This document shows positions 4,950 to 59,639 of a stretch of 64,000 nucleotides of DNA, one piece after another (position 1 is the stretch's first letter; each line of letters opens with the position of its first letter). The notes beneath the pieces were generated by a model. The model saw only the letters and a list, made by a program, of their open reading frames with translations, did not search any database and had not been told where the DNA came from. Position numbers and translations under genes: made by a program. The stretch is from an uncultured Acidobacteriota bacterium (GTDB lineage: Bacteria; Acidobacteriota; Vicinamibacteria; Vicinamibacterales; 2-12-FULL-66-21): assembly GCA_963847125.1 (NCBI GenBank), contig CAWJYM010000004.1:3309663-3373662 (forward strand). The letters are read 5' to 3'.

Positions 4950-4966
4950 ATCCGTTGGCAGCCCTG

Positions 4967-5015: not shown

Positions 5016-5040
5016 CTGCGCTACGAATACAATACCGAGC

Positions 5041-16528: not shown

Positions 16529-16559
16529 CGCAAGCTGCGGATGATAGCATGGCGCGCGA

Positions 16560-19720: not shown

Positions 19721-19725
19721 CGCTG

Positions 19726-20565: not shown

Positions 20566-20578
20566 CCCCACTATCCCG

Positions 20579-21796: not shown

Positions 21797-21815
21797 TCGC
21801 GCGGGCCGCAGGCGC

Positions 21816-22664: not shown

Positions 22665-23116
22665 CGTCGGTCTTCTCCGCCGCAGATGGCGCGCAGGATC
22701 CCCTCGTAGCCCGTGCACCGGCACAGGTTGCCGGCGAGCGCCTCCTGCGCTTCGGCTCGTGACGGCTTTTCGGTCCGGTTGAGCAACGCCCAGGCGGTGA
22801 CGATGATTCCTGGCGTGCAGGCGCCGCACTGAACGCCGCCGCTTTCGACGAATCGATCCAGGAACCCACGCGCGTCGCCGGCGATCCCTTCGACCGTCAG
22901 CACGCGCCGGCCGTCGCACTGACAGAGCGGCACCAGACACGAGAGAACCGGCACGTCGTCCATCAGGACCGTGCAGGCGCCGCACTCCCCTTCTCCACAG
23001 CCTTCCTTCGTGCCAATCAGGTGGAGCCGATCGCGCAGAACGTCGAGCAGACGCTCCATCGGTGCGCCGTCAACCGTGCGCTCAATCCCGTTGACGATGA
23101 ACGTATAGGACGTCAC
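22661..23116 (-). CDS. Xanthine dehydrogenase family, [2Fe-2S] (CoxS-like) subunit
   Basis: It has a GTG start (VTSYTFIVNG...). Both cluster motifs are present: GCGEGECGACTV and CGACTPGII...CRCTGY. Confidence 0.9.
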   Translation of the reverse strand: MTSYTFIVNGIERTVDGAPMERLLDVLRDRLHLIGTKEGCGEGECGACTVLMDDVPVLSCLVPLCQCDGRRVLTVEGIAGDARGFLDRFVESGGVQCGACTPGIIVTAWALLNRTEKPSRAEAQEALAGNLCRCTGYEGILRAICGGEDRR

Positions 23117-25298: not shown

Positions 25299-25509
25299 GC
25301 GAAGAGAGACTATAAACCACGCGAAACGACAGCATGAATTTCGGCCAATTTCTTAGCCACTGGTTAACGCGTTAGCCGTCCGCAGGCCCTGTCCGACGGC
25401 GGGTTTCGCTGTAGGTTTAAGGCCCTAAGAACTTAACTGATATACACTTGCTCGCTTTTTCACGCCCCTGATGAGGCCCGGCACGGGCATTGCTCAAGTT
25501 GGGGTGACC

Positions 25510-38127: not shown

Positions 38128-39269
38128 TTCCCGATCCGCTCGATGCCAGGCTCGGCCACGTCGCGGAGGCCAGGCGCGGCGGCCCGCGCCGGTGGACGAG
38201 GATCCGGCTGGCGCTGGGGTTGTCCCCGACGCCGGCCCCGGGGCTCGTGCTCCTGCCATTGGGAGTGGCGCTGGGACCATACGGTCTGGGACTCCTCTCG
38301 CCCGGCGTCCTGTCGTACCTGGATCCCGCCGTCTCGGTGGCGATCGCGACGCTGGGCGTCTTCGTCGGGCTTGGTCTGGATGCGAGGCGACCGTATGAAG
38401 GTCGCCTGCTGGCGGCCGCCAGCGTCGAGGGTGCGTTCACGATTACCCTCGTGGGCGCCGGCGTGCTCCTGGCGCTCCGCCTGGCACACGTCGAGGTCGG
38501 TCTCCCGCAGTGGCTCGCCGCGCTCCTCATCGGCATCTGCGCCGCTTCGTCATCGACGGCGGCGATTGAGGGTCCGGATCGTCCCGGCGTGCAGGTCGCG
38601 CGCATCGGCGATCTCGATGACGTATTGCCGATCGTCCTCGGCGCCGTGGCGCTCGCGTCGCTGCGCGAGCTCGAGCAGGGGGCGCTCGCGCTGCTCGCCG
38701 TGCAGTCTGCCGTCATCGCGCTCGCCATCGCGTTCGCCGGGTGGCTGCTCGTGTCCCAGGCCACGTCAGAAAGCGAGCAGCGCGTATTTGCGGTTGGCAC
38801 GCTGCTGCTTCTGGGCGGCACCGTGGAGTATCTGTCTTTGTCGGGGTTGCTGGCCGGCCTCGTCGCCGGTGCTCTGTGGAACGCGGCCGGCGGTCCCGGG
38901 CGGGACCGGCTCGAGCGCGACGTGCGTCACGTGCAGCACCCGCTCGTCGTCCTGCTCGTCCTCGTTGCCGGCGCCCGCGTCGGCGTCTGGCCCGGTCTCG
39001 CGCTGCTCGTGTCGGTCTACCTGCTCTTCCGGATCGCGGGCAAGATGGCCGGCGGCTGGATCGCCAGGCGCATCGCGGGGAGCGACGTACCGCCTGGTCT
39101 GGGGCTCTACCTCGTGTCGCCCGGCGTGCTCGCGATCGCGTTCGGTCTCAACGCGATCCAGGCCGCCGGGCCGGATCGCGCCGGGATCGTCCTCGCGGTC
39201 GCGGTCGCCGGGTCGCTCGGCTCGGCGGTGATCTCGCACTTCGTCCATCCGCGGGAGGCGCGGCTGTGA
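38124..39269 (+). CDS. Cation/proton-antiporter-like (Na+/H+ exchanger family) membrane protein
   Basis: It is polytopic and hydrophobic, with a CPA-like N-terminus (LLPLGVALGPYGLGLLSP...DPAVSVAIATLGVFVGLGLD). The start forms an ATGA overlap with the upstream gene. Confidence 0.72.
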   Translation: MIPDPLDARLGHVAEARRGGPRRWTRIRLALGLSPTPAPGLVLLPLGVALGPYGLGLLSPGVLSYLDPAVSVAIATLGVFVGLGLDARRPYEGRLLAAASVEGAFTITLVGAGVLLALRLAHVEVGLPQWLAALLIGICAASSSTAAIEGPDRPGVQVARIGDLDDVLPIVLGAVALASLRELEQGALALLAVQSAVIALAIAFAGWLLVSQATSESEQRVFAVGTLLLLGGTVEYLSLSGLLAGLVAGALWNAAGGPGRDRLERDVRHVQHPLVVLLVLVAGARVGVWPGLALLVSVYLLFRIAGKMAGGWIARRIAGSDVPPGLGLYLVSPGVLAIAFGLNAIQAAGPDRAGIVLAVAVAGSLGSAVISHFVHPREARL

Positions 39270-42019
39270 GGCGCGCGCTCGCCGTCGCACTCGTCATCGC
39301 CGCGATTGTGTGGGTCCGGCAGATCGGCTCGATGGAACCGGATCCGCGGAGCACCGCCCTCGCGATCGGGCTCACGCTCGTTCTGGCGTCGGTGGCCGGC
39401 GACCTGCTGCGCCGCTTCCGCCTGCCGCGCCTGACGGGCTACCTGCTGTTCGGCCTCGTGGTCGGCCCCTATCTCGCGAACCTGATCACCGAGCCGATGG
39501 TGCGCCAGCTTCAAGCGATCAACGGCATCGCGACGACGCTGATTGCGTTCATTGCGGGGCTCACGCTGAACCTGGAGCGTCTCGGCCGCCGCCTGGCGGG
39601 GATCGCGAAGCTGACGCTGACGATCATCGCGATTGCCATGAGCGGGCTGTTCGCGCTTGCCTGGCTCGCCTGGCCGTGGCTGCCGGTCGCCCCGGACGCC
39701 GCGGGACTGCCAAAGCTCGCGATGACCGTCCTTCTCGTGATTATCGTCGTCAGTTTCTCCCCGACGATGACCGCGGCGGTCATCTCCGAAACGGGAGCGC
39801 GCGGCCGGTTGAGCGATCTCGTCCTTGCGATCGTCGTGTTCGCGGATCTCGTCCTCCTCGTCCTGTTCTCGCTGTCGATGCAGCTTGCGCGGACCGCGTT
39901 CGGGGCGCCGGGCGAAGACGTCAACGTCCTGATGCGGCTGGCGTGGGAAATCGGCGGCGCCGCGGCGTTCGGCAGCCTCGTCGGGGCGCTCTTCGCCCTT
40001 TACCTGAAGTACATCGGGCGCGAGATTACGCTCGTGCTCATAGCGGTCTGCGCGCTGCTCAGCCAGGTCGGCTTCACCCAGGGTCTCGAGCCCCTGCTCG
40101 CGGCGATGGCGGCCGGCATCGTGATCGAGAACCTTGCGGTCGCGCAGGGGGACGCGCTCAAGGCTGCGGTTCAGCGCGGCGCGCTTCCGGTGCTCGTGGT
40201 GTTTTTCGTCGCGGTCGGCTCATCGCTGCAGCTCGAGGTGCTCGCCGCGCTCGGCTTCGTCGCCGTCGGCCTGGCGTCCGCGCGGCTCTTGTTGATTTAT
40301 CTCGGCGTGCGCGTCGGAATTCGATTCGCCGACGTCGAGCGCTCCTCGGCGAAGTATGCCTGGACGGGTCTCCTCTCGCAGGCGGGTGTCACGCTTGGGT
40401 TGGCCTCGGTCGTCGCCGCGGACTTTCCCGGCTGGGGCCTCCAGATTCAGATGCTGCTGGTCGCGCTGATCGTCATCCACGAGCTGATCGGCCCCGTCCT
40501 CTTCAGGCTCGGGCTGGCGCAGGCCGGCGAGATCGACGCGAGCGCGCCGCGGCCCCTGATCGTGGTCTCGAACCGGGAGCCCTATCTGCACAACTACGAT
40601 CAGACAGGTCGCGTCACGCACACGGCCGCAACGGGGGGCGTTGCCGTGGCGCTCGACGCGCTCATGCGCGAGCGCGGCGGCGTCTGGATCGCGCACGGCG
40701 CCGGCCGCGCCGATCGGGATGTCGTCGACGCCTCCGACAAGGTGCGCGTGCCTCCGGACAGCGCCTCGTACGATCTGCGTCGTCTGTGGCTGGAGGACCG
40801 TGAGTTCTCGGCGTATTACGCAGGATTCGCCAACGAGGGCCTCTGGCCGCTCTGTCACCTCGTCGACGTGCGTCCGGTGTTTCGCCCCGAGGACTGGTCG
40901 GCATACCAGTCGGTGAACGCGCGCTTCGCCGCGGCGATCGACGAGGAACTGGCGTCGTTCGAGACGCCGGTGTTCATCCAGGACTATCACCTCGCGCTCG
41001 TCGCGCCGCGCCTCCGCGAGCGCCGGCCGGCCGTTCGCACGGCGCTCTTCTGGCACATCCCGTGGCCCTACCCGGATCGCCTGCGCATCTGTCCGTGGCG
41101 GCGCGAGCTTCTCACCGGCCTTCTCGCGAACGACCTCCTCGCGTTCCAGCTCGAGCGGGATCGCCGGAACTTCGTCGCGGCGGCCGAGGAGGAGCTCGAC
41201 GCCGAGATCGAAGCGAACGGCGCGATCGTGCGCTTCGAGGGCCGGCCCACCACGGCCGTGTCGGTGCCGATCGGGGTCGACTACGATCGTATCCAGTCGG
41301 CGGCCGCCGATCCCGCGCTCGCAGACGAACAGCGGAGGCTCGCGCAGGCATTCGGGCTGGGCGCGCCGATTCTTGGCCTCGGCGTCGACCGGCTCGACTA
41401 CACGAAGGGCATCCCCGAGCGCCTCGCCGCGCTGGACCTCCTGCTGACCATGCGGCCGGAGCTGAGCGGCCGGTTGACCTTCGTGCAGATTGCCGTCCCC
41501 TCGCGGTCGGAGCTCGAGAGCTACAGCGCGATCGCCTCGGAGATCGCCAGGCGTGTCGCGGACATCAACGCCCGCCACGCCAAGCCCGGCCTGCCGCCGC
41601 CCGTCTACTACCACAAGGGCGCGCTCACCATGCCGAGCCTGGTGGCGCTCTACCGGCTGGCGCAGTTCTGCGTCGTCAGCTCGCTGCACGACGGGATGAA
41701 TCTGGTCGCGAAGGAGTTCGTGGCGGCGCGGGACGACGAGGATGGCGTCCTGGTCCTGAGCGGCCTGGCGGGCGCAGCGCACGAGCTGCGGGATGCGCTG
41801 ATCATCAACCCGTACGACATCGAGGACTTCGCCAACGCGCTGACCCGCGCCCTGGACATGCAACCCGACGAGCGGCGTGCCCGGATGCGCGCGATGCGGC
41901 GCGTCGTCGCCGGCCGCAACGTGTTCGGCTGGGCGTCGGAGATCCTGGAAGGATTGGAGAGCATCTGGACCAAGCCGCTGCAGTACGCGGCGCGGGCGCC
42001 GGAGGACGCGCCGGTCTAA
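39266..42019 (+). CDS. otsA: Fusion protein: cation/proton-antiporter-like membrane domain + trehalose-6-phosphate synthase (GT20)
   Basis: The GTG start 39266 (GTGA overlap) gives 917 aa. The first ~430 aa are CPA-like (LTGYLLFGLVVGPYLANL...AFIAGLTLNLERL). From ~40553 there is a full OtsA domain (LIVVSNREPY, GLWPLCH, IQDYHL, VDRLDYTKGIPERL, SLHDGMNLVAKEF, LIINPYD). The 1092-aa ORF in the track is an upstream extension. Confidence 0.85.
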   Translation: MRRALAVALVIAAIVWVRQIGSMEPDPRSTALAIGLTLVLASVAGDLLRRFRLPRLTGYLLFGLVVGPYLANLITEPMVRQLQAINGIATTLIAFIAGLTLNLERLGRRLAGIAKLTLTIIAIAMSGLFALAWLAWPWLPVAPDAAGLPKLAMTVLLVIIVVSFSPTMTAAVISETGARGRLSDLVLAIVVFADLVLLVLFSLSMQLARTAFGAPGEDVNVLMRLAWEIGGAAAFGSLVGALFALYLKYIGREITLVLIAVCALLSQVGFTQGLEPLLAAMAAGIVIENLAVAQGDALKAAVQRGALPVLVVFFVAVGSSLQLEVLAALGFVAVGLASARLLLIYLGVRVGIRFADVERSSAKYAWTGLLSQAGVTLGLASVVAADFPGWGLQIQMLLVALIVIHELIGPVLFRLGLAQAGEIDASAPRPLIVVSNREPYLHNYDQTGRVTHTAATGGVAVALDALMRERGGVWIAHGAGRADRDVVDASDKVRVPPDSASYDLRRLWLEDREFSAYYAGFANEGLWPLCHLVDVRPVFRPEDWSAYQSVNARFAAAIDEELASFETPVFIQDYHLALVAPRLRERRPAVRTALFWHIPWPYPDRLRICPWRRELLTGLLANDLLAFQLERDRRNFVAAAEEELDAEIEANGAIVRFEGRPTTAVSVPIGVDYDRIQSAAADPALADEQRRLAQAFGLGAPILGLGVDRLDYTKGIPERLAALDLLLTMRPELSGRLTFVQIAVPSRSELESYSAIASEIARRVADINARHAKPGLPPPVYYHKGALTMPSLVALYRLAQFCVVSSLHDGMNLVAKEFVAARDDEDGVLVLSGLAGAAHELRDALIINPYDIEDFANALTRALDMQPDERRARMRAMRRVVAGRNVFGWASEILEGLESIWTKPLQYAARAPEDAPV

Positions 42020-43071: not shown

Positions 43072-43767
43072 TTAGCTACGGGTTGCTAGGCCATCCGAGA
43101 GCAGCCGTTCGACCACTTCGATCACGCCTGCGCCGGCGGAACCGCCGGTCACGAGGCGCGCGCGACTCTTGAGGGCCGGGATCGCGTTGGCGACCGCAAC
43201 GCCGTAGCCGCACGCCTCCAGAAATGCGTGATCGTTCTCGGCGTCTCCCATGCCGACCACGCTGGCCGCCGGCAACTTCAGGGCGGAGAGCGCGTGACGA
43301 AGCCCGGTGGCCTTGTTGACGCCCGACGGCAGGATCATCACGGCGCCCTTGTTGAAAATGATCTCGAGCTCGAGCCCGAGCTCGCGAATGGCTTCCAGCA
43401 CGCGCGCCTCCTGAGGCTCTCTGGTCGCGACGATCACGCGACCGACGGAGAGCGGGACGACGTTCTTCTGCCGGAGGAGGTCGAGGAATGGCCCGCTCGG
43501 CGCCTCGCCGAGCGTTCGCTCGTCGCCGGTGTCGGGTCGATGCAGCAGTCCGCCGTTCTCCGCGACAACGCGATCGAAGATCGCGAGCGCCGGGCAGACC
43601 CGCTTCAGATCGTCGAGCTCGCGGCCGGTCACGAGGAGAAGCCGGAAGCCGGAGTCCTTCAACCGGTTCAGCGCGTCGAGGACGGCGGGGTCTACGCTGC
43701 CTCCGGTGGCCAGCGTGTCGTCGTAGTCGACGGCGAGCGCGCGAAACCGATTCGAGTTGAGTGTCAT
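43072..43767 (-). CDS. HAD-IIB family phosphatase (candidate sugar-phosphate phosphatase)
   Basis: HAD motif I (AVDYDDTL), VTGR, and motif IV (GMGDAENDHAFL) are present. Confidence 0.8.
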   Translation of the reverse strand: MTLNSNRFRALAVDYDDTLATGGSVDPAVLDALNRLKDSGFRLLLVTGRELDDLKRVCPALAIFDRVVAENGGLLHRPDTGDERTLGEAPSGPFLDLLRQKNVVPLSVGRVIVATREPQEARVLEAIRELGLELEIIFNKGAVMILPSGVNKATGLRHALSALKLPAASVVGMGDAENDHAFLEACGYGVAVANAIPALKSRARLVTGGSAGAGVIEVVERLLSDGLATRS

Positions 43768-43838
43768 GGAATGTCCGGCGAGTGCGGCCTGAGGCCATCA
43801 CTCATGGCATGATTGCAACTACTCCAAGGATATACCGC

Positions 43839-46826: not shown

Positions 46827-48140
46827 GTGCCCGAACAGGCGCGCTCGGACGCGGCTCGAGTCGTGAATCGATGGCTGCAACTCACGGCCTGCGTGATCGC
46901 CATGGCCGCGATCGCGAACCTGCAGTACGCCTGGACGCTGTTCACGATCCCGTTGACGGAGAGCCTCAAGGCCACCCTGTCGGCGGTCCAGCTTACGTTT
47001 ACGATTTTCATCCTCGCGGAGACCTGGCTCGTGCCGGTCGAGGGCTATCTCATCGACAAGCTGGGCCCGCGAAGCGTCGTGACCGTCGGTGGCGTGCTCG
47101 TCGGCCTCGGCTGGATCGGATCGGGCTTCGCGCAGACGCTCGGCGGACTCTACTTCTGGTACGTCCTCGGAGGAATCGGCGCGGGCGCGGTCTACGGCGC
47201 CTCGATCGGCACCGCCTTGAAGTGGTTTCCCGACCGTCGGGGCCTCGCGGCCGGTCTGGCCGCGGGCGCCTATGGGTTCGGCACGGCCCTCACGATCCTG
47301 CCCATCCAGCGGATGATCGAGACGAGCGGCTACCGCTCTGCGTTCATCGTCTGGGGTGTCATCCAGGGCGTCATCGTCATCGTGATGGCGCAGTTCATGA
47401 GAAAGCCTCGACCTGATTGGAAGCCGTCGGGATGGGTACCGGCGGCGACGGCGGCTGTCGTGCAGTCGCGCGTGAGCAAGACGCCGCTTCAGATGATCAG
47501 TACGCCCACCTTCTGGCTGATGTACCTCATGATGACGCTGGTGGCCTTCGGCGGGCTGATGGTGACGGCGCAGCTCAGGCCGATTGCCCGGGACTACGGG
47601 ATGGACAAGACCATCGTCATGTGGGGTGTCAGTGCGCTCGGCCTGGCGCTCATCCTTGACCGCATCCTGAACGGGATTACCCGACCCTTCTGGGGGTGGG
47701 TCTCGGATCACATCGGGCGGTACACCACGATGGGTATCGCGTTCACCCTCGAGGCGATTGCGATCCTGACGCTCATCCAGTTCATCGATCGCCCATTGCT
47801 GTTCGTGGTCCTTTCGGGGTTCGTGTTCTTTGCGTGGGGCGAGATCTACTCGCTCTTCCCGGCGGCCATCGGCGATGTGTTCGGACCGAACTACGCCACG
47901 ACGAACTACGGAATCCAGTACACCGCGAAGGGCACGGCGTCGATCTTCGCCGGATGGGGAGCGGCGTGGCTGGTGGAGACCTACGGGTCCTGGCCTCCCG
48001 TCTTCTGGGTCGCGGTGGCGTGCGACCTGCTCGCCGCGGCGCTGGCGTTCTTCTGGCTTCGCCCTCTCGCGGCGCGTCTCACACAGGCATCAGTCGGCGT
48101 CGCCGACCGGCCACTACGAGCGCCTGCCGCCGCTTCGTAG
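46827..48140 (+). CDS. MFS transporter, oxalate/formate antiporter (OFA)-like
   Basis: GTG 46827 is preceded by GGAGG. It has 12 TM-like segments and OFA-like N-terminal blocks (NLQYAWTLF, LAETWLVPVEGYLIDKLGPR). Confidence 0.85.
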   Translation: MPEQARSDAARVVNRWLQLTACVIAMAAIANLQYAWTLFTIPLTESLKATLSAVQLTFTIFILAETWLVPVEGYLIDKLGPRSVVTVGGVLVGLGWIGSGFAQTLGGLYFWYVLGGIGAGAVYGASIGTALKWFPDRRGLAAGLAAGAYGFGTALTILPIQRMIETSGYRSAFIVWGVIQGVIVIVMAQFMRKPRPDWKPSGWVPAATAAVVQSRVSKTPLQMISTPTFWLMYLMMTLVAFGGLMVTAQLRPIARDYGMDKTIVMWGVSALGLALILDRILNGITRPFWGWVSDHIGRYTTMGIAFTLEAIAILTLIQFIDRPLLFVVLSGFVFFAWGEIYSLFPAAIGDVFGPNYATTNYGIQYTAKGTASIFAGWGAAWLVETYGSWPPVFWVAVACDLLAAALAFFWLRPLAARLTQASVGVADRPLRAPAAAS

Positions 48141-48151
48141 CCGCCTCGACG

Positions 48152-48469
48152 TCAATCGTCGAGGTTCTCGCGAAACACCGGCTGAGCGGGGTCGAGCTGG
48201 CCGGCTGCCACGTCGGCCAGGAGGCATCCGTATTCCGCGGAGGCATCGTCGAGCGATCGATGCCCGCGCTCCCATTGGATGGCGCCGCTCGACGCGTAGA
48301 TCAGCGTGAAGTAGCGGCCGGACGCGTGCTGCATTTCGAGGACCCGGCTGGGGACCTCCGGATCGCCCTCCTGTCCGAACATGTCCATCAGCGCCACGGT
48401 CCATTCGCGGCCCTTTGGATCTCGAACCACCTGACGCTTCAGGTAGTCCCAGTTGTCCATATTCCACAT
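48152..48469 (-). CDS. Hypothetical protein (105 aa), last gene of the Cdc48/OFOR operon
   Basis: The ORF has good third-position G+C and starts 11 nt after the receiver gene stop. I recognise no motif. Confidence 0.5.
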   Translation of the reverse strand: MWNMDNWDYLKRQVVRDPKGREWTVALMDMFGQEGDPEVPSRVLEMQHASGRYFTLIYASSGAIQWERGHRSLDDASAEYGCLLADVAAGQLDPAQPVFRENLDD

Positions 48470-48480
48470 TGCGTAACGGC

Positions 48481-48861
48481 CTAAGGCCCCGTTTCGGGCT
48501 CGAACAGCTGCTCGAGCGCAGCCGCGACTTGAGATCCGGTGAATGGCTTCGGAACGAGGCGCACGTGGCGCGCCTGTCGGGCACGCAGACTCTTTACCGC
48601 TTCATCCGGCGTGTCGCTGATGATGACGACGGGCAGCGTCGAGTGTTCTTCCGCGTCGCGCACCATGTCGAACAGCGACTCGCTCATGTCGAAGATCGAG
48701 CAGTCGATGACGACGGCCGCGGCCTGATCCTGCGCGATGAGCTCGTTGATGGAGGAGGTGTACCCGGAAACGGAGACCTCGTACCCATGATCCCGCAGCG
48801 AGAAGCTCAGGAGCTCGGCGATCTCCGGCGTGTCGTCGACGAGAAGCACCTTTCGAGGCAT
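48481..48861 (-). CDS. Stand-alone CheY-like response-regulator receiver
   Basis: It starts at MPRKVLLVDD, with the acceptor region AAVVIDCSI and the conserved VPKPF. It is 126 aa. Confidence 0.85.
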   Translation of the reverse strand: MPRKVLLVDDTPEIAELLSFSLRDHGYEVSVSGYTSSINELIAQDQAAAVVIDCSIFDMSESLFDMVRDAEEHSTLPVVIISDTPDEAVKSLRARQARHVRLVPKPFTGSQVAAALEQLFEPETGP

Positions 48862-49244
48862 GTGTGGCACGCGGCAGCCTCGTTGCAGCTGCCGGGAAGC
48901 CGCTTCTTCTTGCCTTCGGCAGGCTGCAGGTCGAGCACCCACACGCGGCCGCCGGCGGTGTAGGAGGCGCGGTCGTCGCTTTCGATGACGGCGCCCCAGG
49001 CTTCCAGCGTGCGCATCACGAACGTATAACCCTCGAAGTTGTCCTTGACGTGCTGGAACACCTCGTTGGTGTGCCAGTTGCTTGTGAGCAGCCCGTCGCC
49101 GGCGTGCACGCGGACGACGGTGTAGTACTTGTCATGGCGCGCATCGGCCCGCACGTCGCGTGTCGATCCGCGCTTCTTCCCTTCGCTGACGATGTAGCTT
49201 TCCTCCGGCGGAGGAGGAGCGGCGTCGTGTGCGCCCTCTGCCAT
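48807..49244 (-). CDS. Hypothetical protein (about 145 aa); 3' end uncertain
   Basis: ATG 49244 lies 2 nt after the porB stop (TAAccATG). The ORF runs 55 nt into the receiver gene, so the true stop may be masked by a further indel. Confidence 0.45.
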   Translation of the reverse strand: MAEGAHDAAPPPPEESYIVSEGKKRGSTRDVRADARHDKYYTVVRVHAGDGLLTSNWHTNEVFQHVKDNFEGYTFVMRTLEAWGAVIESDDRASYTAGGRVWVLDLQPAEGKKKRLPGSCNEAAACHTCLERCFSSTTRRRSPSS

Positions 49245-49246
49245 GG

Positions 49247-51561
<2,315 letters not shown>

Positions 51562-51562
<1 letters not shown>

Positions 51563-53398
51563 CACTCGATGTCCTTCGCCGGGCGCTGAGGCAGCGCCTT
51601 CAGCTCGTCTGCCTGCCGGCCGTGCAGCCCCGGGGTAATCGCGAATGCGGTGTCCATGCGAACGACGCCGGTATCGAAGTCGAGCTCGGGCACGCCCTCC
51701 AGGCAGCCGGTCGGACATTCCTCGATGCAGACCCGGCACCCTTTGCAGTAGTCGACCAGAATCTTGTAGAGGCCGTTCGAGCGATCCAATCGGACGATGC
51801 ACGGCTCGGGACAGACGAGATAGCAGTTGTCGCAGGCGTTGCAGGTGCCGCAACTGAAGCACCGGTTCGCCTCTTCGACCGCCTGCTCTTCGGTGAACGC
51901 CAGGATGACCTCGTCCTGCGTGCGGCGTCTCGAGGCGGGCGCGAGCATGTCCTGCTTCACACGCGGGAACTGCGGGAAGTAGGTCATGTTCATGCGATTC
52001 AGATCGACGATCACGTCCACCGCTTTGGGCTGATGCCGCAGCGGAAGGCCGCGAAGAACCTTGTCGACGTTGAAGGCCACGCGCTTGCCGTCACCGACGG
52101 CGTTGACGACCATCAGCGGCTGTCCCGTCCCGAGCTGGACGACGTCGCCGGCGGCGAAGAAGGTCGTGTCGCCGAGACGCCCGAACTCGTCGATCCTGAT
52201 CGTGTTGCGATCGGTCTTGAACTCGGCCGGCAGCCAGCCGAGCGCCGCGTGCTGGCCGACGGCGATGATGACGGTGTCGGCGGCGAACCGTTCCGGCGGC
52301 GCCTGACGGTCGATCGTGATGGCTGACGCGTTGATCGCGCCTGAGAAGCGGGCGGGCCGCAGCTCCAGCGACTCGAGGCGGCCGTTTCCGGCGACCGCCG
52401 TCATCGCCCGACCGTGCAGCAGCTCGACGCCTTCCTCGAGCATGTCGTGCAGGTCCTCGGGCACGCAGGGCATGTCCTTCGTGTTCGCCTCGACGGTGAT
52501 CATCGTCACCTCGAGCGCGCCCTGACGCAGCGCCTCGCGCGCGCAGTCGATGGCGGTGTTGCCGCCGCCGATGACCGCCACGCGCGCGCCGAGCTTCGAC
52601 CTGCGACGTCCCCATGCCGATGTCGCGGAGGAACGGCAGGCCGTAGAGCACGCCCGGCTTGTCTTCGCCCTCGGCGCGCACGCGGTTCGGCTCGGTGAGC
52701 CCGACGGCGAGGACGCACGCGTCGTAGTCGCGCTTCAAGTCGTCCCACGCGACGTCCTTGCCGACCTCGGTGTTCGTCTTGATCGTGATCCCCAGCTCGC
52801 GCAGGCGGTCGATCTCGCGGTCGAGCACGTCCTGCGGCAGGACCCAGTCGGGAATGCCGCCGCGGTTCAGACCGCCTGGCTTCGGCGACTTCTCCAGAAT
52901 CGTCACCGCGTAGCCCAGGCGCGCGAGCTGATAGGCGGCGCTGTGCCCGGCGGGACCCGAGCCGACCACGGCGACTTTCTTGCCGTTCGGCGGCCCGGCC
53001 CGGACGACGTCGCGCGGCAAGGCCAGACCGAGATCGCCGAGGAACCGCTCGACGGCGCGAATCGAGATCGCCTCGTCGTACTGCCCGCGGTTGCAGGCCT
53101 GCTCGCACGGGTGGTAGCAGACACGGCCGGTGACCGACGGAAACGGCATGTCTTCCTTGATCAGCGCGTAGGCGTCGAGGTACTTGCCGCGCTTGACCAG
53201 GTCGAGATACCCCTGGATCTTCTCGTTGGTTCCGCAGGCGTTGTTGCAGGGCGGCATCTTGTCGCGATACACGGGCCGGATCGCGCGCCAGTTGCCGGTC
53301 GGAAACAGATCCTGGCCCTTCTCCTGCGTCGGCGCCGGCGTGATGCCGGCAAACGGAACCTTCAGCCAGTCTGGAATGTGGGTGCCCTTGGTCGACAT
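51562..53398 (-). pseudogene. GltD-like NAD(P)H flavoprotein fused to a 2x[4Fe-4S] ferredoxin (OFOR delta-like) domain, with one apparent +1 frameshift (~52594-52606)
   Basis: The upstream piece reads MSTKGTH...CNNACGTNEKIQGY...VAVVGSGPAGHSAAYQLARLG...LRDIGMGTSQ. The downstream piece reads SKLGARVAVIGGGNTAIDCAR...CFSCGTCNACDNCYLVCP...YCKGCRVCIEECP. Confidence 0.8.
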
Positions 53399-54060
53399 CA
53401 GTTCCCCGCGCTCGTGACGGCCGACGCGTTCAGCGTCAGCACCTGCAACGCGTCCCAGCCCGCCCGGAACGCCGCCTGGTTCGAAATCATCGGTTCGATG
53501 TTGTCGCGGTTGACGATGCCTGTCGTCTTGACCACCGCGGCGATGAGCGGCGCCGCGATGTCTGGCGCGATCGCCTTGCTCCGCTCGGCCGCGCCTTCGG
53601 TCGAGAGGCGATCGAGGCCCAGCTCGCCGAGCCGATAGTACAGCCATTTGTGATCGGCCAGCTTCGCCGCATCCACGCAGACGAGCTGCGCCAGCCGCTC
53701 GGGGCCCGGCACGAAGCGCAACATGTAGTCGGGCGCGTAGTGCGTGTTGATCACGAGCGTCCCGCCCGGCGGCATGCCGCGCATGTAGTCCCATCCCTTC
53801 ACCATCGTCCCCTCGACGAGGACCACGACGTTGGGATGCTCGTTCTCGTAGGTCAGCGCGTGCTCGATCTCCGAGTCGCTGAGCCGGCAGTACTTCCGCG
53901 TCGGCGCATTGGTCCGATCGGGGTTGTCGACGTAGTTCTCCATCGCCTGCGTGAACTTGCCCTCCTTGCGGCCCGCCATCGCGACGGAGTTCACGATGTC
54001 GCGTCCTTCCTTGTCCATGATGATGCCGCGGGTCCAGACGGTCAGCTCGACATAACTCAT
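53398..54060 (-). CDS. 2-oxoacid:ferredoxin oxidoreductase gamma-like subunit (divergent)
   Basis: The 220-aa layout resembles POR gamma (N-terminal nucleotide-like loop region, VVVLVEGTM...GGTLVINT). It lacks a canonical GRGGQG. It is tightly coupled: ATGA with the upstream stop and TGATG with the next start. Confidence 0.6.
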   Translation of the reverse strand: MSYVELTVWTRGIIMDKEGRDIVNSVAMAGRKEGKFTQAMENYVDNPDRTNAPTRKYCRLSDSEIEHALTYENEHPNVVVLVEGTMVKGWDYMRGMPPGGTLVINTHYAPDYMLRFVPGPERLAQLVCVDAAKLADHKWLYYRLGELGLDRLSTEGAAERSKAIAPDIAAPLIAAVVKTTGIVNRDNIEPMISNQAAFRAGWDALQVLTLNASAVTSAGN

Positions 54061-56235
54061 GACGGATCCTTCGCCTCTTCGTTCGGGGCGATGAAATCGC
54101 TCCAGCGGACCTCGAGACGCTTGTCGCTTCCCTGCCCGTGACAGCGATCGATCGCGACGAGCATCGCCTTCTTGCACAGGCTCTCGATATCGGCGCCCGT
54201 CCGCCCCTCGGTGCGGCGGGCCAGCTCCGCGAGATCGACGTCCGCCGCCAGCGGCGCCCGGCGACAGTAGAACCGGGCGATGGCTTCGCGCGCCGCGGCA
54301 TCGGGTTCCGGGAAGTTCACCACGTAGTCGAAGCGCCCGCTGCGCATGAGCACCGGATCGACGCGCTCGAGCCGGTTCGTCGCGGCGAGCAATATAACGC
54401 CTTTGACGTCGCCCAAACCGTCGATCTCGCGCACGAGCTGGCTCAGGATTCGCGGGTAGATTCCCGCCGAGGCCTGGTGCTCCGCGGCCGACATCGGTCA
54501 GCCGCGGCGCGAGGGCGTCGATGGTGTCGAAGAACAGGAGGCAGGGCGCCGCCCGGCGCGCCTTCTTGAAGACGCTGCGGAGCGCCTTCTCCGATTCGCC
54601 CAGCCATTTCGAGAAGAGCTGCGGGCCGTCGACGGCAATGAGCGGCAGACCCGTCTCGCCCGACAGCGCCCGCGCCATCGTCGTCTTTCCGGTTCCGGAG
54701 CGTCCCGTGAAGAGGATGCCGCGCGGCGTCGTCAAACCAACCTGCTCGTACACGTCGTCATGCACGTGGCCGTGCTCGACGATGGCGCGCAAGAGCCGCT
54801 TGATCTCGTCGAGTCCGCCCACGGCGTCGAAGCGGATGGCGCTTTTCTCGAGCAGGAATTCGCGCGTGGCGCTGGGCTCCACTTCCTTCAGCCCCTGAAG
54901 GAAGTCCTCCGCCGTCACGACCAGGGCGCCGAGCTCCGCGCGGTCGGCATCGCCGGCGCGGCTCGAGCTGGTCGACAGAAAGCGCCGGAGCGCGATGATG
55001 CCGACTTCCTGGCAGAGCGCCTCCAGGTCGGCGCCGACGAAGCCGTGCGTGTGCTCCGCGATCTCCTCGAGCCTGACGTCCGGGGCCAGCGGCATGGCGC
55101 GCGTGTGGATCCGGAGGATCTGGAGCCGGCCGGCCGCGTTCGGCACGCCGATCTCGATCTCGCGATCGAAGCGGCCCGGTCGCCGCAGCGCGGGATCGAG
55201 CACTTCGGGGATGTTCGTGGCCCCGATGACGATCACCTGGCCGCGGGCGACGAACCCGTCCATCAGGCCCAGCAGCTGCGCGACGACGCGCTTTTCGACT
55301 TCGCCGACGACCTCGGCGCGCTTCGGCGCGACGGCGTCGATTTCGTCGATGAAGATGATCGCGGGCGCGGAGCGCGCGGCCTCCTCGAAGACTTCGCGGA
55401 GCCGCGCTTCGCTCTCGCCGTAGAACTTGCGCATGATCTCCGGTCCGTTCAAATGGATGAAGTGGACGCGGCTTTCGGCCGCCACCGCGCGAGCCAGGAG
55501 CGTCTTGCCCGTCCCCGGAGGCCCGTGCAGCAACACGCCCTTGGGCGGCAGGATGCCGAGCCGCTCGAAGATGCGGACGTTTTTGAGGGGCAGCTCGATG
55601 ATCTCGCGCACGCGCGCGAGCTCCCGCTCGAGGCCGCCGACGTCTTCGTACGAGATGCCCGGCGCCTGCGCCGTGGATTGATCGCCTTCGACGACGCGCA
55701 GATCGGTGCGCCGATCGATGAGGACCGGACCGGACGGAATCGTGCGCTTCACCTGGAAGTTCACGGCCTTGGCGAACGTCGGCACGCGGACGATCGCGCC
55801 GGTGATGACGGGGACGCCGCGCAGATCCTCGAGGATCCGCTCCGGGCTGATCGCCGTCGGCGTCGATCCGCCGACGCTCGCGAGCCGGACCGAGACCGCG
55901 GCGCCGTGCTCGACGCGGGTGACCGACACGAGCTCCTGGAGGCCGGCGCCGCCGTTGCCGCGCACGGTGCCGTCAATCTGGATCGTCCCCGGTTCCGCGG
56001 GCGCCTGGAGCTCCGCGCGCGCGACCGCGACCAGCCGCCCCGTGATCTGGAGCACGTCGCCCGGCCGCGCGCCTATCCGGACGAGATCCGGCGCGGCGAG
56101 ACGGGCCACGGCCCGGCCGACGTCGTCGACGTGGGCTTCGGTCACGCGCAGCGTGACATTCGCCCCGAACAGCGTGGCGCCTTCGTTCTTCGGAAGCTCA
56201 GGGATGAGCCCGTCGGGAGGGGGGAACGCGGTCAT
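54057..56235 (-). pseudogene. Cdc48/VAT-type double-ring AAA+ ATPase with one apparent +1 frameshift in D2 (~54489-54503)
   Basis: An N-domain is followed by D1 ([55 protein letters not shown]). D2 reads FTGRSGTGKTTMARAL, LLFFDTIDALAPR, and then, after the frame break, SAAEHQASAGIYPRILSQLVREIDGL...LAATNRLERVDPVLMRSGRFDY. Confidence 0.85.
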
Positions 56236-56633
56236 GCCTGTGAATCGACCGATTTCGAGGAGGGCGCGCCGAACGTTCTCTCGAGCTGTTGCGCGAACGC
56301 GGTCAGCGTCGCGGTCTGCTTCCGCCGAATCTCGGCGCGCTCCGGCGTCTCTCCGGCGGTCGCGTCGGCCGGTACCACGGTGATGCGCACGAGGCCGTCG
56401 CCACCGTCGGCGAGCGAGACCGTCCCGAGGTTGGTGTGCTCGATGGCCCAGCCGTCGCTCTTCATCGAGGTCACGGCCATGCGCAACGTCCCTGCCTCGC
56501 TTTCCCAGGGCACTACGAGCGCGCTGACGACGCGGCGCTCGGAGGCATAGGCCTCGATGGCGGCCGCCACGGCGCGGGCGGGGCCGGCTGCCGTGAACTC
56601 GACGATCGCCGAGGGCGTGTCCGGGCTGGGCAT
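56232..56633 (-). CDS. Hypothetical protein (133 aa), first gene of the Cdc48/OFOR operon
   Basis: It starts at ATG 56633 (MPSPDTPSAIVEF...). Its stop forms an ATGA overlap with the Cdc48-like start. I recognise no motif. Confidence 0.5.
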   Translation of the reverse strand: MPSPDTPSAIVEFTAAGPARAVAAAIEAYASERRVVSALVVPWESEAGTLRMAVTSMKSDGWAIEHTNLGTVSLADGGDGLVRITVVPADATAGETPERAEIRRKQTATLTAFAQQLERTFGAPSSKSVDSQA

Positions 56634-56680
56634 GACGTCAGCGTCTGAGCCGCGGGGGCCTGAAGTGGTACACTGACTCG

Positions 56681-57487
56681 GTGGTCCGACCAGTGAGGCC
56701 CAGTCTGGCATCGTTGAAACGACCCGTCAAGAACGCGGGCCACGCCGTCGACACCGCCGAGGATCTGCAGGGTCTCACGCCGATCCCGCGCACGCGGGTT
56801 CCGGACGAGATCGCGAACCGGATTCGGACGCTCATCGTCGACGGCACGTTCACACCGGATCACCCCCTGCCCTCCGAGCGCGCGCTCGCCCAACGGATGC
56901 GCGTCAGCCGCGGCTCGGTCCGCGACGCCATCCGGCGGCTCGAGGTCGTGGGCCTGCTCGAAGCGCGGCACGGCCAGGGCACCTTCCTGCGCGAGCTCTC
57001 CGTCGACAATCTCGTGACGCCGATGGCGTCCGTGATGACCTTCAACCGGACGCGGCAGGCGGACTTGATGGACGTGCGCCGGATGTTCGAACCGGCGGTG
57101 GCTGGCATGGCGGCCACCCGCGCGACGGCCTCCGACCTCCAGGAGATCGAGCGGATCCTCGAGGCGCAGCGCCGCAAGGTACAATCGGGCAGGCCGACCA
57201 TCGACGAGGACACGGCCTTTCATACCGCGGTGGCCCGGGCGACGCACAACCCGGTGATCGTCGGAATCATGGAAACGCTCAACGATCTCCTGGTCGAGTC
57301 TCGCGCGCGGACGTTGCAGCGGCGCGGGCGTCCCCTGCGCTCCTTGCGCGGACATGCCGCGGTCGTCCAGGCCCTCCGCCGTCAGGACGCGAGCCGGGCG
57401 GCGGCCGCGATGCGCACCCACATCGATCAGATCGCCGCGCTGCTCGACGAGCTGCCTGACCGCACCGTGCCACGTGGCCGACGATGA
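56681..57487 (+). CDS. GntR-family transcriptional regulator, FadR/FCD subfamily
   Basis: The wHTH is LPSERALAQRMRVSRGSVRDAIRRLEVVGLLEARHGQGTF, followed by an all-helical FCD-like C-terminal domain. It is divergent from the Cdc48/OFOR operon. Confidence 0.85.
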   Translation: MVRPVRPSLASLKRPVKNAGHAVDTAEDLQGLTPIPRTRVPDEIANRIRTLIVDGTFTPDHPLPSERALAQRMRVSRGSVRDAIRRLEVVGLLEARHGQGTFLRELSVDNLVTPMASVMTFNRTRQADLMDVRRMFEPAVAGMAATRATASDLQEIERILEAQRRKVQSGRPTIDEDTAFHTAVARATHNPVIVGIMETLNDLLVESRARTLQRRGRPLRSLRGHAAVVQALRRQDASRAAAAMRTHIDQIAALLDELPDRTVPRGRR

Positions 57488-58265
57488 TGTGATCGCCCGC
57501 ACGGCGGCCATCGACGCGTACCGCCACCGACTCGATCACCTTCAGGCCTGGGGTCGGCATCTTCGCGAGACGCTGGCGAACGCTCCGCAGAGCGCCTCCG
57601 ACTTGCCATCGCTCGACGTCTGGCAGCGTGAGTGCGCCACGACGGTGAGCCAGCTGTCCGGAGGCAGCAAGGCGCACTGGCTCTCACAGGCGTTCAGCAA
57701 CGCACTCCTCGTGCCGGCCGCCGGCGCCGAGTCGGCCAGTGTCGTCGTCATCATCGACCGTCTGCTCGAGGTGCTCGATTCGGCTGGCCGCTCGCTGTCC
57801 GATGCCGAGCTCACCTCCGTCGACGCCCCCTCCCAACCGCCGCCCTCACGCTTCGCGACCATCGAGAACGCCGCGCTTCGCGCCAGCCTCGAACGCGCCT
57901 ATCAGGATGGCGTGGAGGCCTTCGAGCGTGGAGAGTCGGCGCTCGCGCTGACGACCTTCTGCAGCATCCTCGAGACGGTCATTACGTACGCGCTCGAAGC
58001 GCATGGACCCGACCGACTCGCGGCGCTCGAGCCGCCGGAGGGGCCCATCGCCACGTGGTCGTTCGCGACGCGGATCGCGACGGCGGAGCGGGCGGGCCTC
58101 ATCTCGCGCGGGTGCGCCCGCCTCCCCGTCGTTGCCCGCGAGTACCGTGATCGTCTTGACGCGAGCGGCGGATTGATCCCCGGCGACGTCATCTCGTTGC
58201 GCGATGCCCGGCTGGCGAGCGACGTCCTGCACGTCATCCTTCACGATCTTTCACCGGGACGTTGA
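57474..58265 (+). CDS. Hypothetical protein (about 263 aa)
   Basis: The GTG 57474 (or 57489) start overlaps the GntR stop. The protein looks helical and has no recognised family. The longer ORF start (57354) lies inside the GntR gene. Confidence 0.5.
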   Translation: MADDDVIARTAAIDAYRHRLDHLQAWGRHLRETLANAPQSASDLPSLDVWQRECATTVSQLSGGSKAHWLSQAFSNALLVPAAGAESASVVVIIDRLLEVLDSAGRSLSDAELTSVDAPSQPPPSRFATIENAALRASLERAYQDGVEAFERGESALALTTFCSILETVITYALEAHGPDRLAALEPPEGPIATWSFATRIATAERAGLISRGCARLPVVAREYRDRLDASGGLIPGDVISLRDARLASDVLHVILHDLSPGR

Positions 58266-58282
58266 GCGCCCCTTGACCGAAT

Positions 58283-59296
58283 CTAGTCCCTGACGATTCT
58301 TAACCCGGTAGGTGCTGACGGAGCGCCTGACGCCAGGCAGCCGATGTAACTCTTAGCGGCAACCATGTGGTCGAACTTCATGCTGCTCGTGAATCCTGGG
58401 GGATCGTCAGGCGAGTAGTTCTGCAGCCAGATGTAATTGAGCTTGAGATTGACGTTGCTCCGCCAGCGAAGTCCCTCGAACGGAGCACCGTTCGGATTCT
58501 GTGTGAAGTTGCCCCAGGTCCATGAACCGTTCGGAAATCCCTGGCCGACATGACTCACCTTGACACCGTCAATCCAGATCGCGTGCTCGCCATTCGAAGC
58601 GGCGACCGGGTTATTCAGCTTCACCATGTGCTCCACGCACATCCACTGTCCCCTTTTTCCGACCACGTTCGGATTGTTCAATAACGTGTTGCCCCAATAG
58701 TTCCCGTCGGGCGCCGCGCGCATGTTCATCCAATAGTTGTAATGGTCGAACCGTGACGTGGCGTACGATTGCTCCGCGGCCGCCGAGAAGCGATCGTCGC
58801 CGAGCGGCCGGATTCCTGCCTGTGGGTTCGGCCACGGGAGCGGTGGATTGTATCCGCCGATCCAGATGCCCTCGTGATGGTGGTGTCCATCTGTCGGGTA
58901 CTTGATGTAGTAGCGGACATAGATCACGTCGTCGATACCAGGGTTGAGTTGTTTATAAAGATGTCCGCCGTTATTGACGCCGCCGCCGACCCACGGAATG
59001 TTGAGCGAGCGCGCCCCCGGACTTCCCGGCGGCACGTCAGCGTTGAAGGTCATCTTCGAGCCGTTCAGAACGTCGGTCCACCGGCTGAAGAGATCGGTGA
59101 GTGTGTTCTGTTCGAACTTCTCGACGAAGACCACATCAGGGTCGGTCTCGATGCCTGCGTCCCCGGGATAGCGAGCCGCGAGGCCAATTGATCCGGGCTG
59201 TGCTGAGGGCACGCTGACGATTGCAACCGCCGCGATCGTCAGGCCGATCGTGGTGCACGCTCTGCGCAGGCGCGCCGCGGAAAATGTTCGTGTCAC
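58283..59296 (-). CDS. Secreted jelly-roll (concanavalin/LamG-like) protein, possible polysaccharide lyase/glycan-binding protein
   Basis: It has a signal peptide (TTIGLTIAAVAIVSVPSAQP) and an Asn/Gly/Trp-rich beta-type composition. It is visibly more A/T-rich than its neighbours. The function is a guess. Confidence 0.55.
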   Translation of the reverse strand: MTRTFSAARLRRACTTIGLTIAAVAIVSVPSAQPGSIGLAARYPGDAGIETDPDVVFVEKFEQNTLTDLFSRWTDVLNGSKMTFNADVPPGSPGARSLNIPWVGGGVNNGGHLYKQLNPGIDDVIYVRYYIKYPTDGHHHHEGIWIGGYNPPLPWPNPQAGIRPLGDDRFSAAAEQSYATSRFDHYNYWMNMRAAPDGNYWGNTLLNNPNVVGKRGQWMCVEHMVKLNNPVAASNGEHAIWIDGVKVSHVGQGFPNGSWTWGNFTQNPNGAPFEGLRWRSNVNLKLNYIWLQNYSPDDPPGFTSSMKFDHMVAAKSYIGCLASGAPSAPTGLRIVRD

Positions 59297-59639
59297 TCCT
59301 GGTGACGGGGCAAACTCGGTGCCACGGGACGACAGGGAGACTGCGCCAAACTGCCGGAGGCCAACCCTGAGTCGGGGGATCCTATCGACGGAATAGTCGG
59401 CGAACCGGCAGAATCGTCACGCGTGCGCCGGCAGGAAGGCCCCGGTTGACGGATGACCGACGCCGGGCGCATGCTGAGGGACGGCGTCGATCCACGCCGA
59501 ACCTCTTCAGGTCCCGCCCCGGCCGGGACCCGCTGTGAGGCAAAGGGGGGCAGACTCCCGGATCGCACGTTCACAACCTTTGCGTCGCCGCGTGCGCTGC
59601 CGGGGAGTCAGCCCGTGGCGCGTGCAAAGGAGACGTAAC

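Follow-up and report, generated by a model that had tools for sequence, protein, structure and literature searches.

Which substrate is oxidized by the 2-oxoacid oxidoreductase encoded in a nine-gene operon of an uncultured soil-type acidobacterium, which acceptor takes its electrons, and why is the gene for a Cdc48-type AAA+ ATPase joined to its genes? The operon lies on the minus strand (56711-48152) of a 64,000-nucleotide stretch of contig CAWJYM010000004.1 from an Acidobacteriota bacterium of the order Vicinamibacterales; this whole stretch is referred to here as the window. An earlier description made from the letters alone (the sequence-only reading) saw nine genes coupling the ATPase to a 2-oxoacid:ferredoxin oxidoreductase (OFOR), a fusion of a GltD-like flavoprotein with a ferredoxin, and a CheY receiver, a composition for which it knew no described system. 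The comparisons reported here favor a more specific reading, which we consider fairly probable as a whole: the locus would be an oxalate-catabolic unit of a Vicinamibacterales-like acidobacterium in which an oxalate oxidoreductase (OOR) yields NADH, the ATPase serves as a remodeller of that enzyme, and six frameshifts present in the window are artefacts. The locus is a variant of a known enzyme system rather than an unprecedented composition.

Sequence comparison identifies the alpha, beta and gamma-like products as orthologues of the three-subunit OOR of Moorella thermoacetica (5C4I, 5EXD, 5EXE). Alpha scores 588.2 bits against the NCBIfam model for OOR alpha (NF045791, cut-off 500), aligned over positions 1-394 of 395, compared with 339 bits for the next-best model, PorA. 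It aligns ungapped with residues 3-394 of 5C4I_A (E 2.9e-154), and beta aligns with 5C4I_C (E 2.7e-113); identity to the Moorella-type subunits is 57% for alpha, 55% for beta and 43% for gamma (over Moorella delta residues 14-213). Arg31, Arg109, Asp116 and Phe117 of alpha, which belong to the active site and switch loop of OOR, are invariant in the alignment with 5C4I_A, and the stretch IADRTLDPPGDFG.EHTDA and the whole loop 106-124 are conserved. The adjacent transporter of the major facilitator superfamily (MFS) scores 484 bits against TIGR04259, the oxalate/formate antiporter model (cut-off 335). Because alpha passes its equivalog cut-off, the active-site residues are conserved and an OxlT-type antiporter is adjacent, the enzyme is best read as an OOR; the earlier assignment to the OFOR family was sound, and can be narrowed to an OOR orthologue with an OxlT-type neighbor. 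Genes for formate dehydrogenase, frc/oxc and a histidine kinase were not found in the window.

Several scores weigh against this assignment. Beta reaches 435.6 bits against the OOR beta model NF045792, short of the cut-off of 590, although this is still its best model, by 167 bits; gamma reaches 183 bits against the OOR delta model NF045790 (cut-off 230; positions 13-211, E 1e-53), and the flavoprotein 507 bits against NF009410 (cut-off 516). Both the substrate and the electron acceptor of the acidobacterial enzyme are predictions. The scores of beta and gamma, the further matches of alpha and beta to PorA/PorB and PadG/PadI models, and an OFOR-plus-flavoprotein architecture resembling PadEFGHI could all be explained if the likeness to OOR reflected ancestry only and the enzyme acted with CoA on another 2-oxoacid, such as pyruvate, glyoxylate or an aromatic one. 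We regard this as improbable, given the gap between the OOR alpha and PorA scores, the conservation of the OOR-specific residues and loop 106-124, and an adjoining transporter that is an OxlT equivalog here and OxlT-like in most related loci.

The Pad comparison is instructive, since an NAD-linked OFOR with an additional flavoprotein subunit was already known and the claim of no precedent was to that extent too strong. Phenylglyoxylate:NAD+ oxidoreductase (PadEFGHI) of Azoarcus evansii is an OFOR with an extra flavoprotein that reduces NAD+ directly, as PMC5109826 states with reference to Hirsch et al. 1998. The NCBIfam models PadE, PadG and PadI match gamma, alpha and beta only weakly, with scores far under their cut-offs (PadG 246 against 700 for alpha, PadI 169 against 700 for beta, PadE 41 against 300 for gamma), and judged by these scores the locus, for all its likeness to Pad in design, is not a member of it. 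The Pad enzyme acts on an aromatic 2-oxoacid with CoA, and its flavoprotein forms a subunit of its own instead of being inserted in the delta domain; we know of no Cdc48-like partner of the Pad enzyme.

The organization of the flavoprotein sets the acidobacterial enzyme apart from its Moorella counterpart. The Moorella OOR has the composition (abc)2, with domains I-II, VI and III-V distributed over its three kinds of subunit (PMC5020499). Domains III and V there share one 315-amino-acid (aa) subunit, whereas here domain III is a separate protein of 220 aa and domain V carries a GltD/NfnB-type insert of about 470 residues that is missing from Moorella. BLASTP against the 315-aa subunit matches flavoprotein residues 13-43 (KVPFAGITPAPTQEKGQDLFPTGNWRAIRPV) to Moorella delta 227-255 and residues 519-574 to delta 261-313, and the C-terminal ferredoxin part of the flavoprotein also matches positions 258-315 of NF045790. 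Because two separate segments match Moorella delta, this is an insertion rather than an end-to-end fusion, and the alignments place the GltD/NfnB-type module inside OOR domain V, just ahead of the first cluster motif. Both domains of the 'GltD-like/ferredoxin fusion' described previously are present.

Pfam matches in the flavoprotein are Fer4_20, Pyr_redox_2 (1-291) and Fer4, and NF009410 (PRK12771) is covered over positions 28-561 of 566, with all the features of membership present (the Fer4_20 two-cluster domain, the FAD motif GxGxxG, the nicotinamide motif GxGxxA and a C-terminal 2x[4Fe-4S] domain). The insert itself comprises Fer4_20, with two [4Fe-4S] clusters, followed by two Rossmann folds, one for FAD and one for the nicotinamide, and its closest solved structures are Nfn-type (NfnB), Nfn-like fusion and GltD proteins. 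It shares all three domains with NfnB/GltD (4YLF, 5JCA, 2VDC) and differs in being spliced into an OFOR delta domain and, by general Rossmann-fold rules, in having a Glu instead of the NADPH-type Arg pair. In every locus the nicotinamide Rossmann fold has 'VTMITVE' at the end of its second strand, with the Glu invariant and no Arg pair. An acidic residue at this point without an Arg pair generally favors NAD over NADP, and the acceptor is therefore expected to be NAD. We infer from the flavoprotein in domain V that the enzyme would be an oxalate:NAD+ oxidoreductase; the proposal that the complex is NAD(P)-linked is supported by this GltD/NfnB-type, NAD(P)-binding flavoprotein wired to an OFOR.

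A further point against this reading is that NfnB-type flavins are able to bifurcate electrons, such that a second acceptor is possible. With NfnB-type bifurcating modules and Nfn-like fusions as the closest solved relatives of the insert, the complex could be electron-bifurcating or -confurcating, with both NAD(P)+ and ferredoxin as acceptors. We think this very unlikely: the operon encodes no NfnA-like partner or second flavin/[2Fe-2S] subunit, and by general redox chemistry the electrons of oxalate are already of low potential, so that their downhill passage to NAD+ needs no coupling. The predicted route remains one from oxalate to NAD+ in a single complex, in distinction to the Moorella OOR, which reduces ferredoxin.

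Long spurious open reading frames (ORFs) are abundant in the window, which has a G+C content of about 67%, and genes were called by combining a frame plot of G+C at third codon positions (GC3) with Pfam scans. The genes of the locus are as follows.

57474..58265, plus strand: conserved neighbor of about 263 aa with no known family (no Pfam match)
56681..57487, plus strand: GntR/FCD regulator, divergent from the operon (Pfam GntR 2.3e-19, FCD 1.1e-29)
56232..56633, minus strand: 133-aa protein with no known family (no Pfam or NCBIfam match); an ORF start at 56711 is possible, and the stop overlaps the Cdc48 start (ATGA)
54057..56235, minus strand: Cdc48/VAT-type double-ring AAA+ ATPase, 725 aa once one inserted base is removed
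53398..54060, minus strand: OOR domain-III subunit ('gamma'), 220 aa, intact (Pfam POR)
51562..53398, minus strand: OOR domain V (2x[4Fe-4S]) with GltD/NfnB-type insert, 611 aa minus one base (Fer4_20, Pyr_redox_2, Fer4)
50373..51562, minus strand: OOR alpha, 395 aa minus two bases (POR_N and PFOR_II)
49248..50313, minus strand: OOR beta, with thiamine pyrophosphate (TPP) and a [4Fe-4S] cluster, 354 aa minus two bases (TPP_enzyme_C)
48807..49244, minus strand: orphan protein hyp118, 145 aa in the window and 118-124 aa in relatives (no Pfam or NCBIfam match)
48481..48861, minus strand: stand-alone CheY-type receiver, 126 aa (Response_reg)
48152..48469, minus strand: orphan protein hyp105, 105 aa (no Pfam or NCBIfam match)
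46827..48140, plus strand: OxlT-type oxalate/formate antiporter (MFS), convergent with the operon and separated from its end by 11 nt

The nine co-directional genes have the order and domain content that had been described, with Pfam support, and the overlap-type junctions are also borne out by the coordinates. ATGA junctions are found at 56232-56235 (133-aa gene and Cdc48) and 54057-54060 (Cdc48 and gamma), and TGATG-type 1-nt overlaps at 53398 and 51562; further down there are gaps of 59, 3 and 11 nt. The Walker A motifs GPPGTGKT (D1) and GRSGTGKT (D2), the divergent GntR/FCD gene and the three products without a recognizable family are all as previously noted, and the hypothetical protein of about 145 aa has that length in the window only, its stop codon having been lost relative to the shorter homologues. 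A scan for promoters and terminators gave nothing exceeding background.

One genome per species was scanned with an alignment of alpha, giving at least 431 places, and the neighborhoods of the best 80 of these were surveyed by tblastn with the nine products. Alpha is 87-99% identical across several orders in these 80 loci, whose titles are all of Acidobacteriota lineages (Terriglobales, Vicinamibacterales, Acidiferrales, Bryobacteraceae, Thermoanaerobaculia and others) except for one Deferrimicrobiaceae. The genes for gamma, the GltD-ferredoxin protein, alpha, beta, hyp118, CheY and hyp105 keep this order on every contig of sufficient length, and most loci have an OxlT-like gene 1-3 kb further downstream. 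Such an arrangement is far beyond chance: about 70 acidobacterial species-level genomes offer enough sequence, and all of them repeat the order. A GntR/FCD gene adjoins the operon in nearly all related loci; in Terriglobales it is co-directional and directly upstream of Cdc48. In 58 of 70 acidobacterial loci the Cdc48-like gene runs up to the start of gamma or almost so, and in one other it is 4.7 kb away.

The association of this ATPase with OOR genes extends well beyond the Acidobacteriota. A search with Moorella alpha, followed by lookup of the encoding contigs, gave six loci from other phyla, with the following gene orders.

Moorella sp. CP136420 (alpha with 97% identity to the crystallised M. 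thermoacetica sequence): GntR/FCD, 733-aa Cdc48-like protein, OOR delta, alpha, beta, lactate-permease-type transporter
Caldinitratiruptor: OOR genes preceded by a Cdc48-like gene
Actinomycetota metagenome-assembled genome (MAG): Cdc48-like gene, then OOR genes
Ignavibacteriales: GntR, Cdc48-like gene, OOR genes, lactate permease
Syntrophomonas: GntR, Cdc48-like gene, OOR genes, lactate permease
Clostridium: GntR, OOR genes, MFS transporter, and no Cdc48

The Moorella genome therefore has the same core layout as the window, a GntR/FCD regulator, a Cdc48-like gene and OOR genes, with a carboxylate permease to follow, and the GntR/FCD gene also adjoins the OOR genes in Syntrophomonas, Ignavibacteriales and Clostridium. 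The Cdc48-OOR pairing is old, spans at least four phyla and is not unique to this locus, and with GntR/FCD, Cdc48-like and OOR genes already adjacent in Moorella the statement that no such system had been described is overstated. The proposed linkage of the Cdc48-like gene to OFOR genes stands, as orthologues are found directly upstream of such genes in five of the six loci from other phyla and in 58 of the 70 acidobacterial ones. A search of the literature found no paper on the ATPase beside the Moorella OOR or on an acidobacterial OOR. The GltD insert, the CheY gene and the orphan genes are in none of the six other-phyla loci (the Moorella locus, for one, lacks CheY, hyp118 and hyp105), and no homologues of the three orphan proteins were found in them; the insert, CheY and two orphan proteins are thus additions seen only in the Acidobacteriota loci sampled.

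Two other features of these loci are noted. Caldinitratiruptor carries a second GntR/FCD and Cdc48-like pair (L085 19554..21203) 8 kb downstream of its OOR genes, at which point the locus ends. A 109-aa protein ending ...PGKNITLQ follows the MFS gene in the Actinomycetota (L086 13838..14167) and Clostridium (L087 10826..11155) loci; it has no Pfam match and is unrelated to the acidobacterial orphans.

The ATPase is a genuine Cdc48/VAT-type AAA+ protein rather than an FtsH/ClpX-type paralogue, in agreement with its earlier description as a double-ring Cdc48/VAT-like ATPase. Its Pfam matches are CDC48_N, CDC48_2, two AAA and two AAA_lid_3 domains, it scores 748.8 bits against the CDC48 family model TIGR01243 (cut-off 802.65), and its closest solved structure is Thermoplasma VAT (5G4F, E 1.4e-185). 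It is 49% identical to the Cdc48-like protein upstream of the Moorella OOR, and acidobacterial ATPases in general are 45-51% identical to the OOR-linked ATPases of other phyla. It shares with VAT, Cdc48 and p97 the N domain (double-psi barrel and beta-clam) and two AAA rings, and both rings have aromatic pore-loop motifs (KFYG and KWLG) as in VAT, which argue for substrate threading. It differs from VAT and Cdc48 in having no HbYX-type tail, in the replacement of the D2 Walker B glutamate, and in being encoded in a metabolic operon with no proteasome linkage. The C-terminus (...FIAPNEEAKDPS; ...EEAKDPS) has no HbYX-type motif, C-termini are not conserved among the homologues, and neither the window nor the related loci showed any proteasome genes.

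The Walker A and B motifs of D1 are canonical (Walker B IIFIDEID). The D2 Walker B motif (54520..54545) reads LLFFDTID, with D-T in place of D-E, and among acidobacterial homologues D-T is found in 58 of 59 and D-N in the remaining one. D-E is kept in the four other-phyla partners for which the motif search gave a match, those of Moorella, Caldinitratiruptor, Actinomycetota and Ignavibacteriales. With this glutamate replaced, the acidobacterial D2 ring probably binds nucleotide without hydrolysing it.

What such an ATPase does for an OOR is the least secure part of the interpretation. Our best guess is that it acts as a dedicated OOR remodeller in maturation, cofactor exchange or reactivation, by analogy with CbbX-type Rubisco activases. 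CbbX is a classical-clade AAA+ protein encoded beside the enzyme that it remodels; the analogy is functional only. Unlike the ATPase of the window, CbbX forms one ring and lacks the Cdc48 N domain. Counting against a remodeller are the 11 of 70 acidobacterial loci that have OOR genes with no Cdc48 within 10 kb, and the Clostridium OOR locus, likewise without a nearby Cdc48; any physical interaction of ATPase and OOR is putative. With about 16% of acidobacterial loci and Clostridium having no adjacent ATPase, it is either accessory rather than obligatory or encoded elsewhere.

These loci could also mean that the ATPase does not act on OOR, belonging instead to a regulatory layer with GntR/FCD (unfolding or removing a repressor, for example) or to proteostasis under acid or oxalate stress. 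The conservation of the GntR-then-Cdc48 order and the second such pair in Caldinitratiruptor, 8 kb from the OOR genes, would fit well with that arrangement. In Vicinamibacterales-type loci, however, GntR is divergent, and in one relative with 96% DNA identity to the window (L001) missing, with Cdc48 staying ATGA-coupled to the OOR genes; moreover we know of no precedent for such a mechanism. We consider a role apart from OOR unlikely, and retain remodelling of the enzyme as the working interpretation.

A different question is whether the window copy of the operon encodes a working enzyme at all, since four of the nine genes, those for Cdc48, the GltD-like protein, alpha and beta, are frameshifted, a feature that the sequence-only reading did not notice. 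Three-frame views show six single-base insertions within these genes, each giving a +1 shift. The sites below are located relative to contig CAVRXL010000012.1 (L001/L004), a 1.9-Mb contig of a related MAG (isolate MFD06229.bin.1.246) with 96% DNA identity to the window.

54492, minus strand: 1-nt insertion in Cdc48 D2, with AAA profile positions 1-77 and 78-130 in different frames
52596, minus strand: 1-nt insertion in the GltD-like gene, with Pyr_redox_2 positions 1-123 and 146-291 in different frames
50873 and 50831, minus strand: two 1-nt insertions in alpha, three frames being needed for its reading
49752 and 49461, minus strand: two 1-nt insertions in beta, absent from the short-read contigs L091-L093

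Pfam matches to POR_N/PFOR_II and TPP_enzyme_C are likewise split between frames, and the longest ORF as written is a 945-aa chimera of the Cdc48 N domain and D1, out-of-frame sequence, and gamma. There is no record of the window gamma product as a called gene, probably as a consequence of this fusion. Deletion of one base per site restores proteins of 725, 611, 395 and 354 aa, which differ from their L001 counterparts by 7, 13, 1 and 2 residues (Cdc48, GltD-like, alpha and beta, respectively). In L001 none of the nine genes is interrupted, and their products are of 133, 725, 220, 611, 395, 354, 118, 126 and 105 aa, and all other indels between it and the window within the operon are intergenic, at gene ends, or compensated.

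The six insertions are very probably artefacts of long-read assembly, to judge from an intact L001, strong constraint on the affected genes, and closely similar short-read contigs without the two insertions that they cover. The ratio of non-synonymous to synonymous substitution rates (dN/dS) between window and L001 is 0.06-0.11 for the four affected genes, and with four outgroups we count 9 replacements on the window lineage and 10 on the intact sister lineage; by these counts there is no relaxation of selection on the window lineage. Over 47.4-49.8 kb, and apart from one indel block, the window has about 99% identity to the short-read contigs L090-L093, which come from four independent samples, and the three that reach beta (L091-L093) have none of the beta insertions that they span. 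Frame breaks in the five large genes number 13 in 47 long-read 'contig_N' MAG loci (nine loci affected) and 3 in 35 short-read loci, all in one locus. An exact-pattern scan of metagenomes of the Joint Genome Institute (JGI) across one of the frameshift sites gave no match. Programmed frameshifting was considered and rejected, as no slippery motif is common to the six sites and the genes are uninterrupted in relatives.

The distribution of the insertions does count against an artefact, as they are tightly clustered within about 5 kb, unlike a uniform error model, and only one other frameshift was found in the 64-kb window. This is a -1 shift at about 23690 (minus strand) in the molybdopterin subunit of a xanthine-dehydrogenase-like enzyme, where the ORFs 23113..23952 and 23358..25352 hold MoCoBD_2 positions 10-144 and 155-283 in different frames. 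If instead the six frameshifts were real mutations, the operon would be decaying and yield no working enzyme. The clustering fits this, as does the loss of the hyp118 stop codon in an indel block at 48879-48894, by which the window copy overlaps cheY by 55 nt (48807..48861), where the near-identical short-read contigs have a 120-aa hyp118 gene and a 43-nt spacer before cheY; further, those contigs come from other samples and are no proof of the state of this genome. Against it stand the low dN/dS and the lack of excess replacements, the absence of in-frame stops or deletions, the fact that all six changes are +1 insertions, which is unusual in natural decay, and the similar breaks, differently placed, that affect 9 of the 47 long-read MAG loci and only 1 of the 35 short-read loci. 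Genuine decay seems to us to have only a small chance of being correct, and with the frameshifts most likely assembly errors, the operon is presumably functional in the organism. A plausible cause is mis-polishing by cross-mapped reads of co-occurring Acidobacteriota, because the operon is unusually conserved (alpha is 87-93% identical across orders). Frameshift-ridden long-read MAG sequence can evidently pass by eye as intact genes, and caution is warranted. Separately, the alpha-beta spacer carries a 27-nt insertion relative to L001 at 50325..50352 (TCGCAGCGCAGCCCTTCAGGGCTGCCT) that can form a GC-rich hairpin.

A plausible scenario for the function of the locus is that OxlT imports oxalate, which TPP in alpha/beta would decarboxylate twice to CO2 without CoA. 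The two electrons would then pass from TPP to the beta cluster, through the two domain-V clusters and the two Fer4_20 clusters to FAD, which would reduce NAD+, such that NADH is made directly instead of reduced ferredoxin, an outcome that would be well matched to soil bacteria of largely aerobic habit. Oxalate or a related acid probably induces the operon through GntR/FCD, OOR may be remodelled by the Cdc48/VAT-like hexamer, and CheY with the two orphan proteins would add an extra regulatory layer in Acidobacteriota.

Oxalate is a major low-molecular-weight acid of soils, derived from fungi, roots and the oxalate-carbonate pathway, and oxalotrophy is usually tracked through the genes for formyl-CoA transferase and oxalyl-CoA decarboxylase. 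If oxalate is converted to NADH as proposed, these bacteria would form a large guild of oxalate consumers that has until now gone uncounted, and the enzyme would, among OORs, be the first with pyridine-nucleotide coupling, as well as an example of a redox module placed within an OFOR ferredoxin domain. The pairing with a VAT-like unfoldase also raises the question of whether the crystallised, well-characterised OOR needs an ATP-driven remodeller; if it does, the concept of the enzyme activase would extend to bacterial Cdc48-type machines. A bolder proposal, attractive and rather doubtful in its entirety, is that the ATPase is a dedicated OOR partner (activase, maturase or repair factor) from Moorella to Acidobacteriota, and that the NfnB-like splice created an unrecognised and widespread soil route from oxalate to 2 CO2 and NADH under the control of CheY and the orphan proteins. 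The interest of the locus lies in the predicted pyridine-nucleotide coupling, its wide distribution in soil Acidobacteriota and the conserved, uncharacterised unfoldase partner.

The CheY receiver and the two orphan proteins that flank it are probably regulatory. Residues D9, D10, D53, S/T82 and K105 of the receiver are conserved in 71-73 of 73 homologues. No kinase for it was found in the window, and the suggested tie to a phospho-relay, correct in that a CheY-type receiver is present, otherwise hangs on this orphan receiver. A hyp118 gene follows beta in all acidobacterial loci (62-83% identity), and only 68 representatives are found among 1.84 billion proteins; hyp105 is 54-68% identical across acidobacterial loci, with 19 invariant columns. 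AlphaFold models of both are poor (pLDDT 47 for hyp118 with a 9-row alignment, and 55 for hyp105 from a single sequence). The three orphan sequences concatenated as a query returned only 16 mis-called fusion ORFs.

The 133-aa protein is 90% identical to the 133-aa product of L001, and its gene is present only in 13 related loci, a Vicinamibacterales-like subset with a divergent GntR; two of these (L042 and L068) have it without Cdc48. The GntR gene (window 56730..57438) is absent at the corresponding position of L001, as is a gene for a 337-aa secreted-looking protein (58283..59296, minus strand, within the stretch 58268..59439). The neighbor of about 263 aa (motif ...QLSGGSKAHWL...) has homologues in L001 and in a contig of JGI 3300043331. 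It lies beside GntR in Vicinamibacterales-type loci; in Terriglobales-type loci (e.g. L007 13464..14276, minus strand) it is on the opposite strand, with the 105-aa gene on one side and OxlT on the other. The JGI 3300043331 contig, a 74%-identity relative, has a second OFOR set upstream of the GntR of its OOR operon (3380..6845), consisting of a 388-aa Fer4 protein, POR_N/PFOR_II and TPP_enzyme_C.

Among the more distant genes of the window, we note a 917-aa ORF (39266..42016, plus strand) combining a Na+/H+ exchanger membrane domain with a family-20 glycosyltransferase of the trehalose-6-phosphate-synthase type, near a HAD phosphatase gene (43072..43797); it is either a real fusion or the product of a stop codon lost through an assembly indel. 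The region 16548..25352 is a purine/urate catabolism cluster with genes for an amidohydrolase, allantoicase, OHCU decarboxylase, HIU hydrolase, uricase, a DUF6986 protein, and the [2Fe-2S] and molybdopterin subunits of xanthine dehydrogenase. Oxalate is among the products of certain pathways of ureide degradation, in which it arises by way of oxamate.

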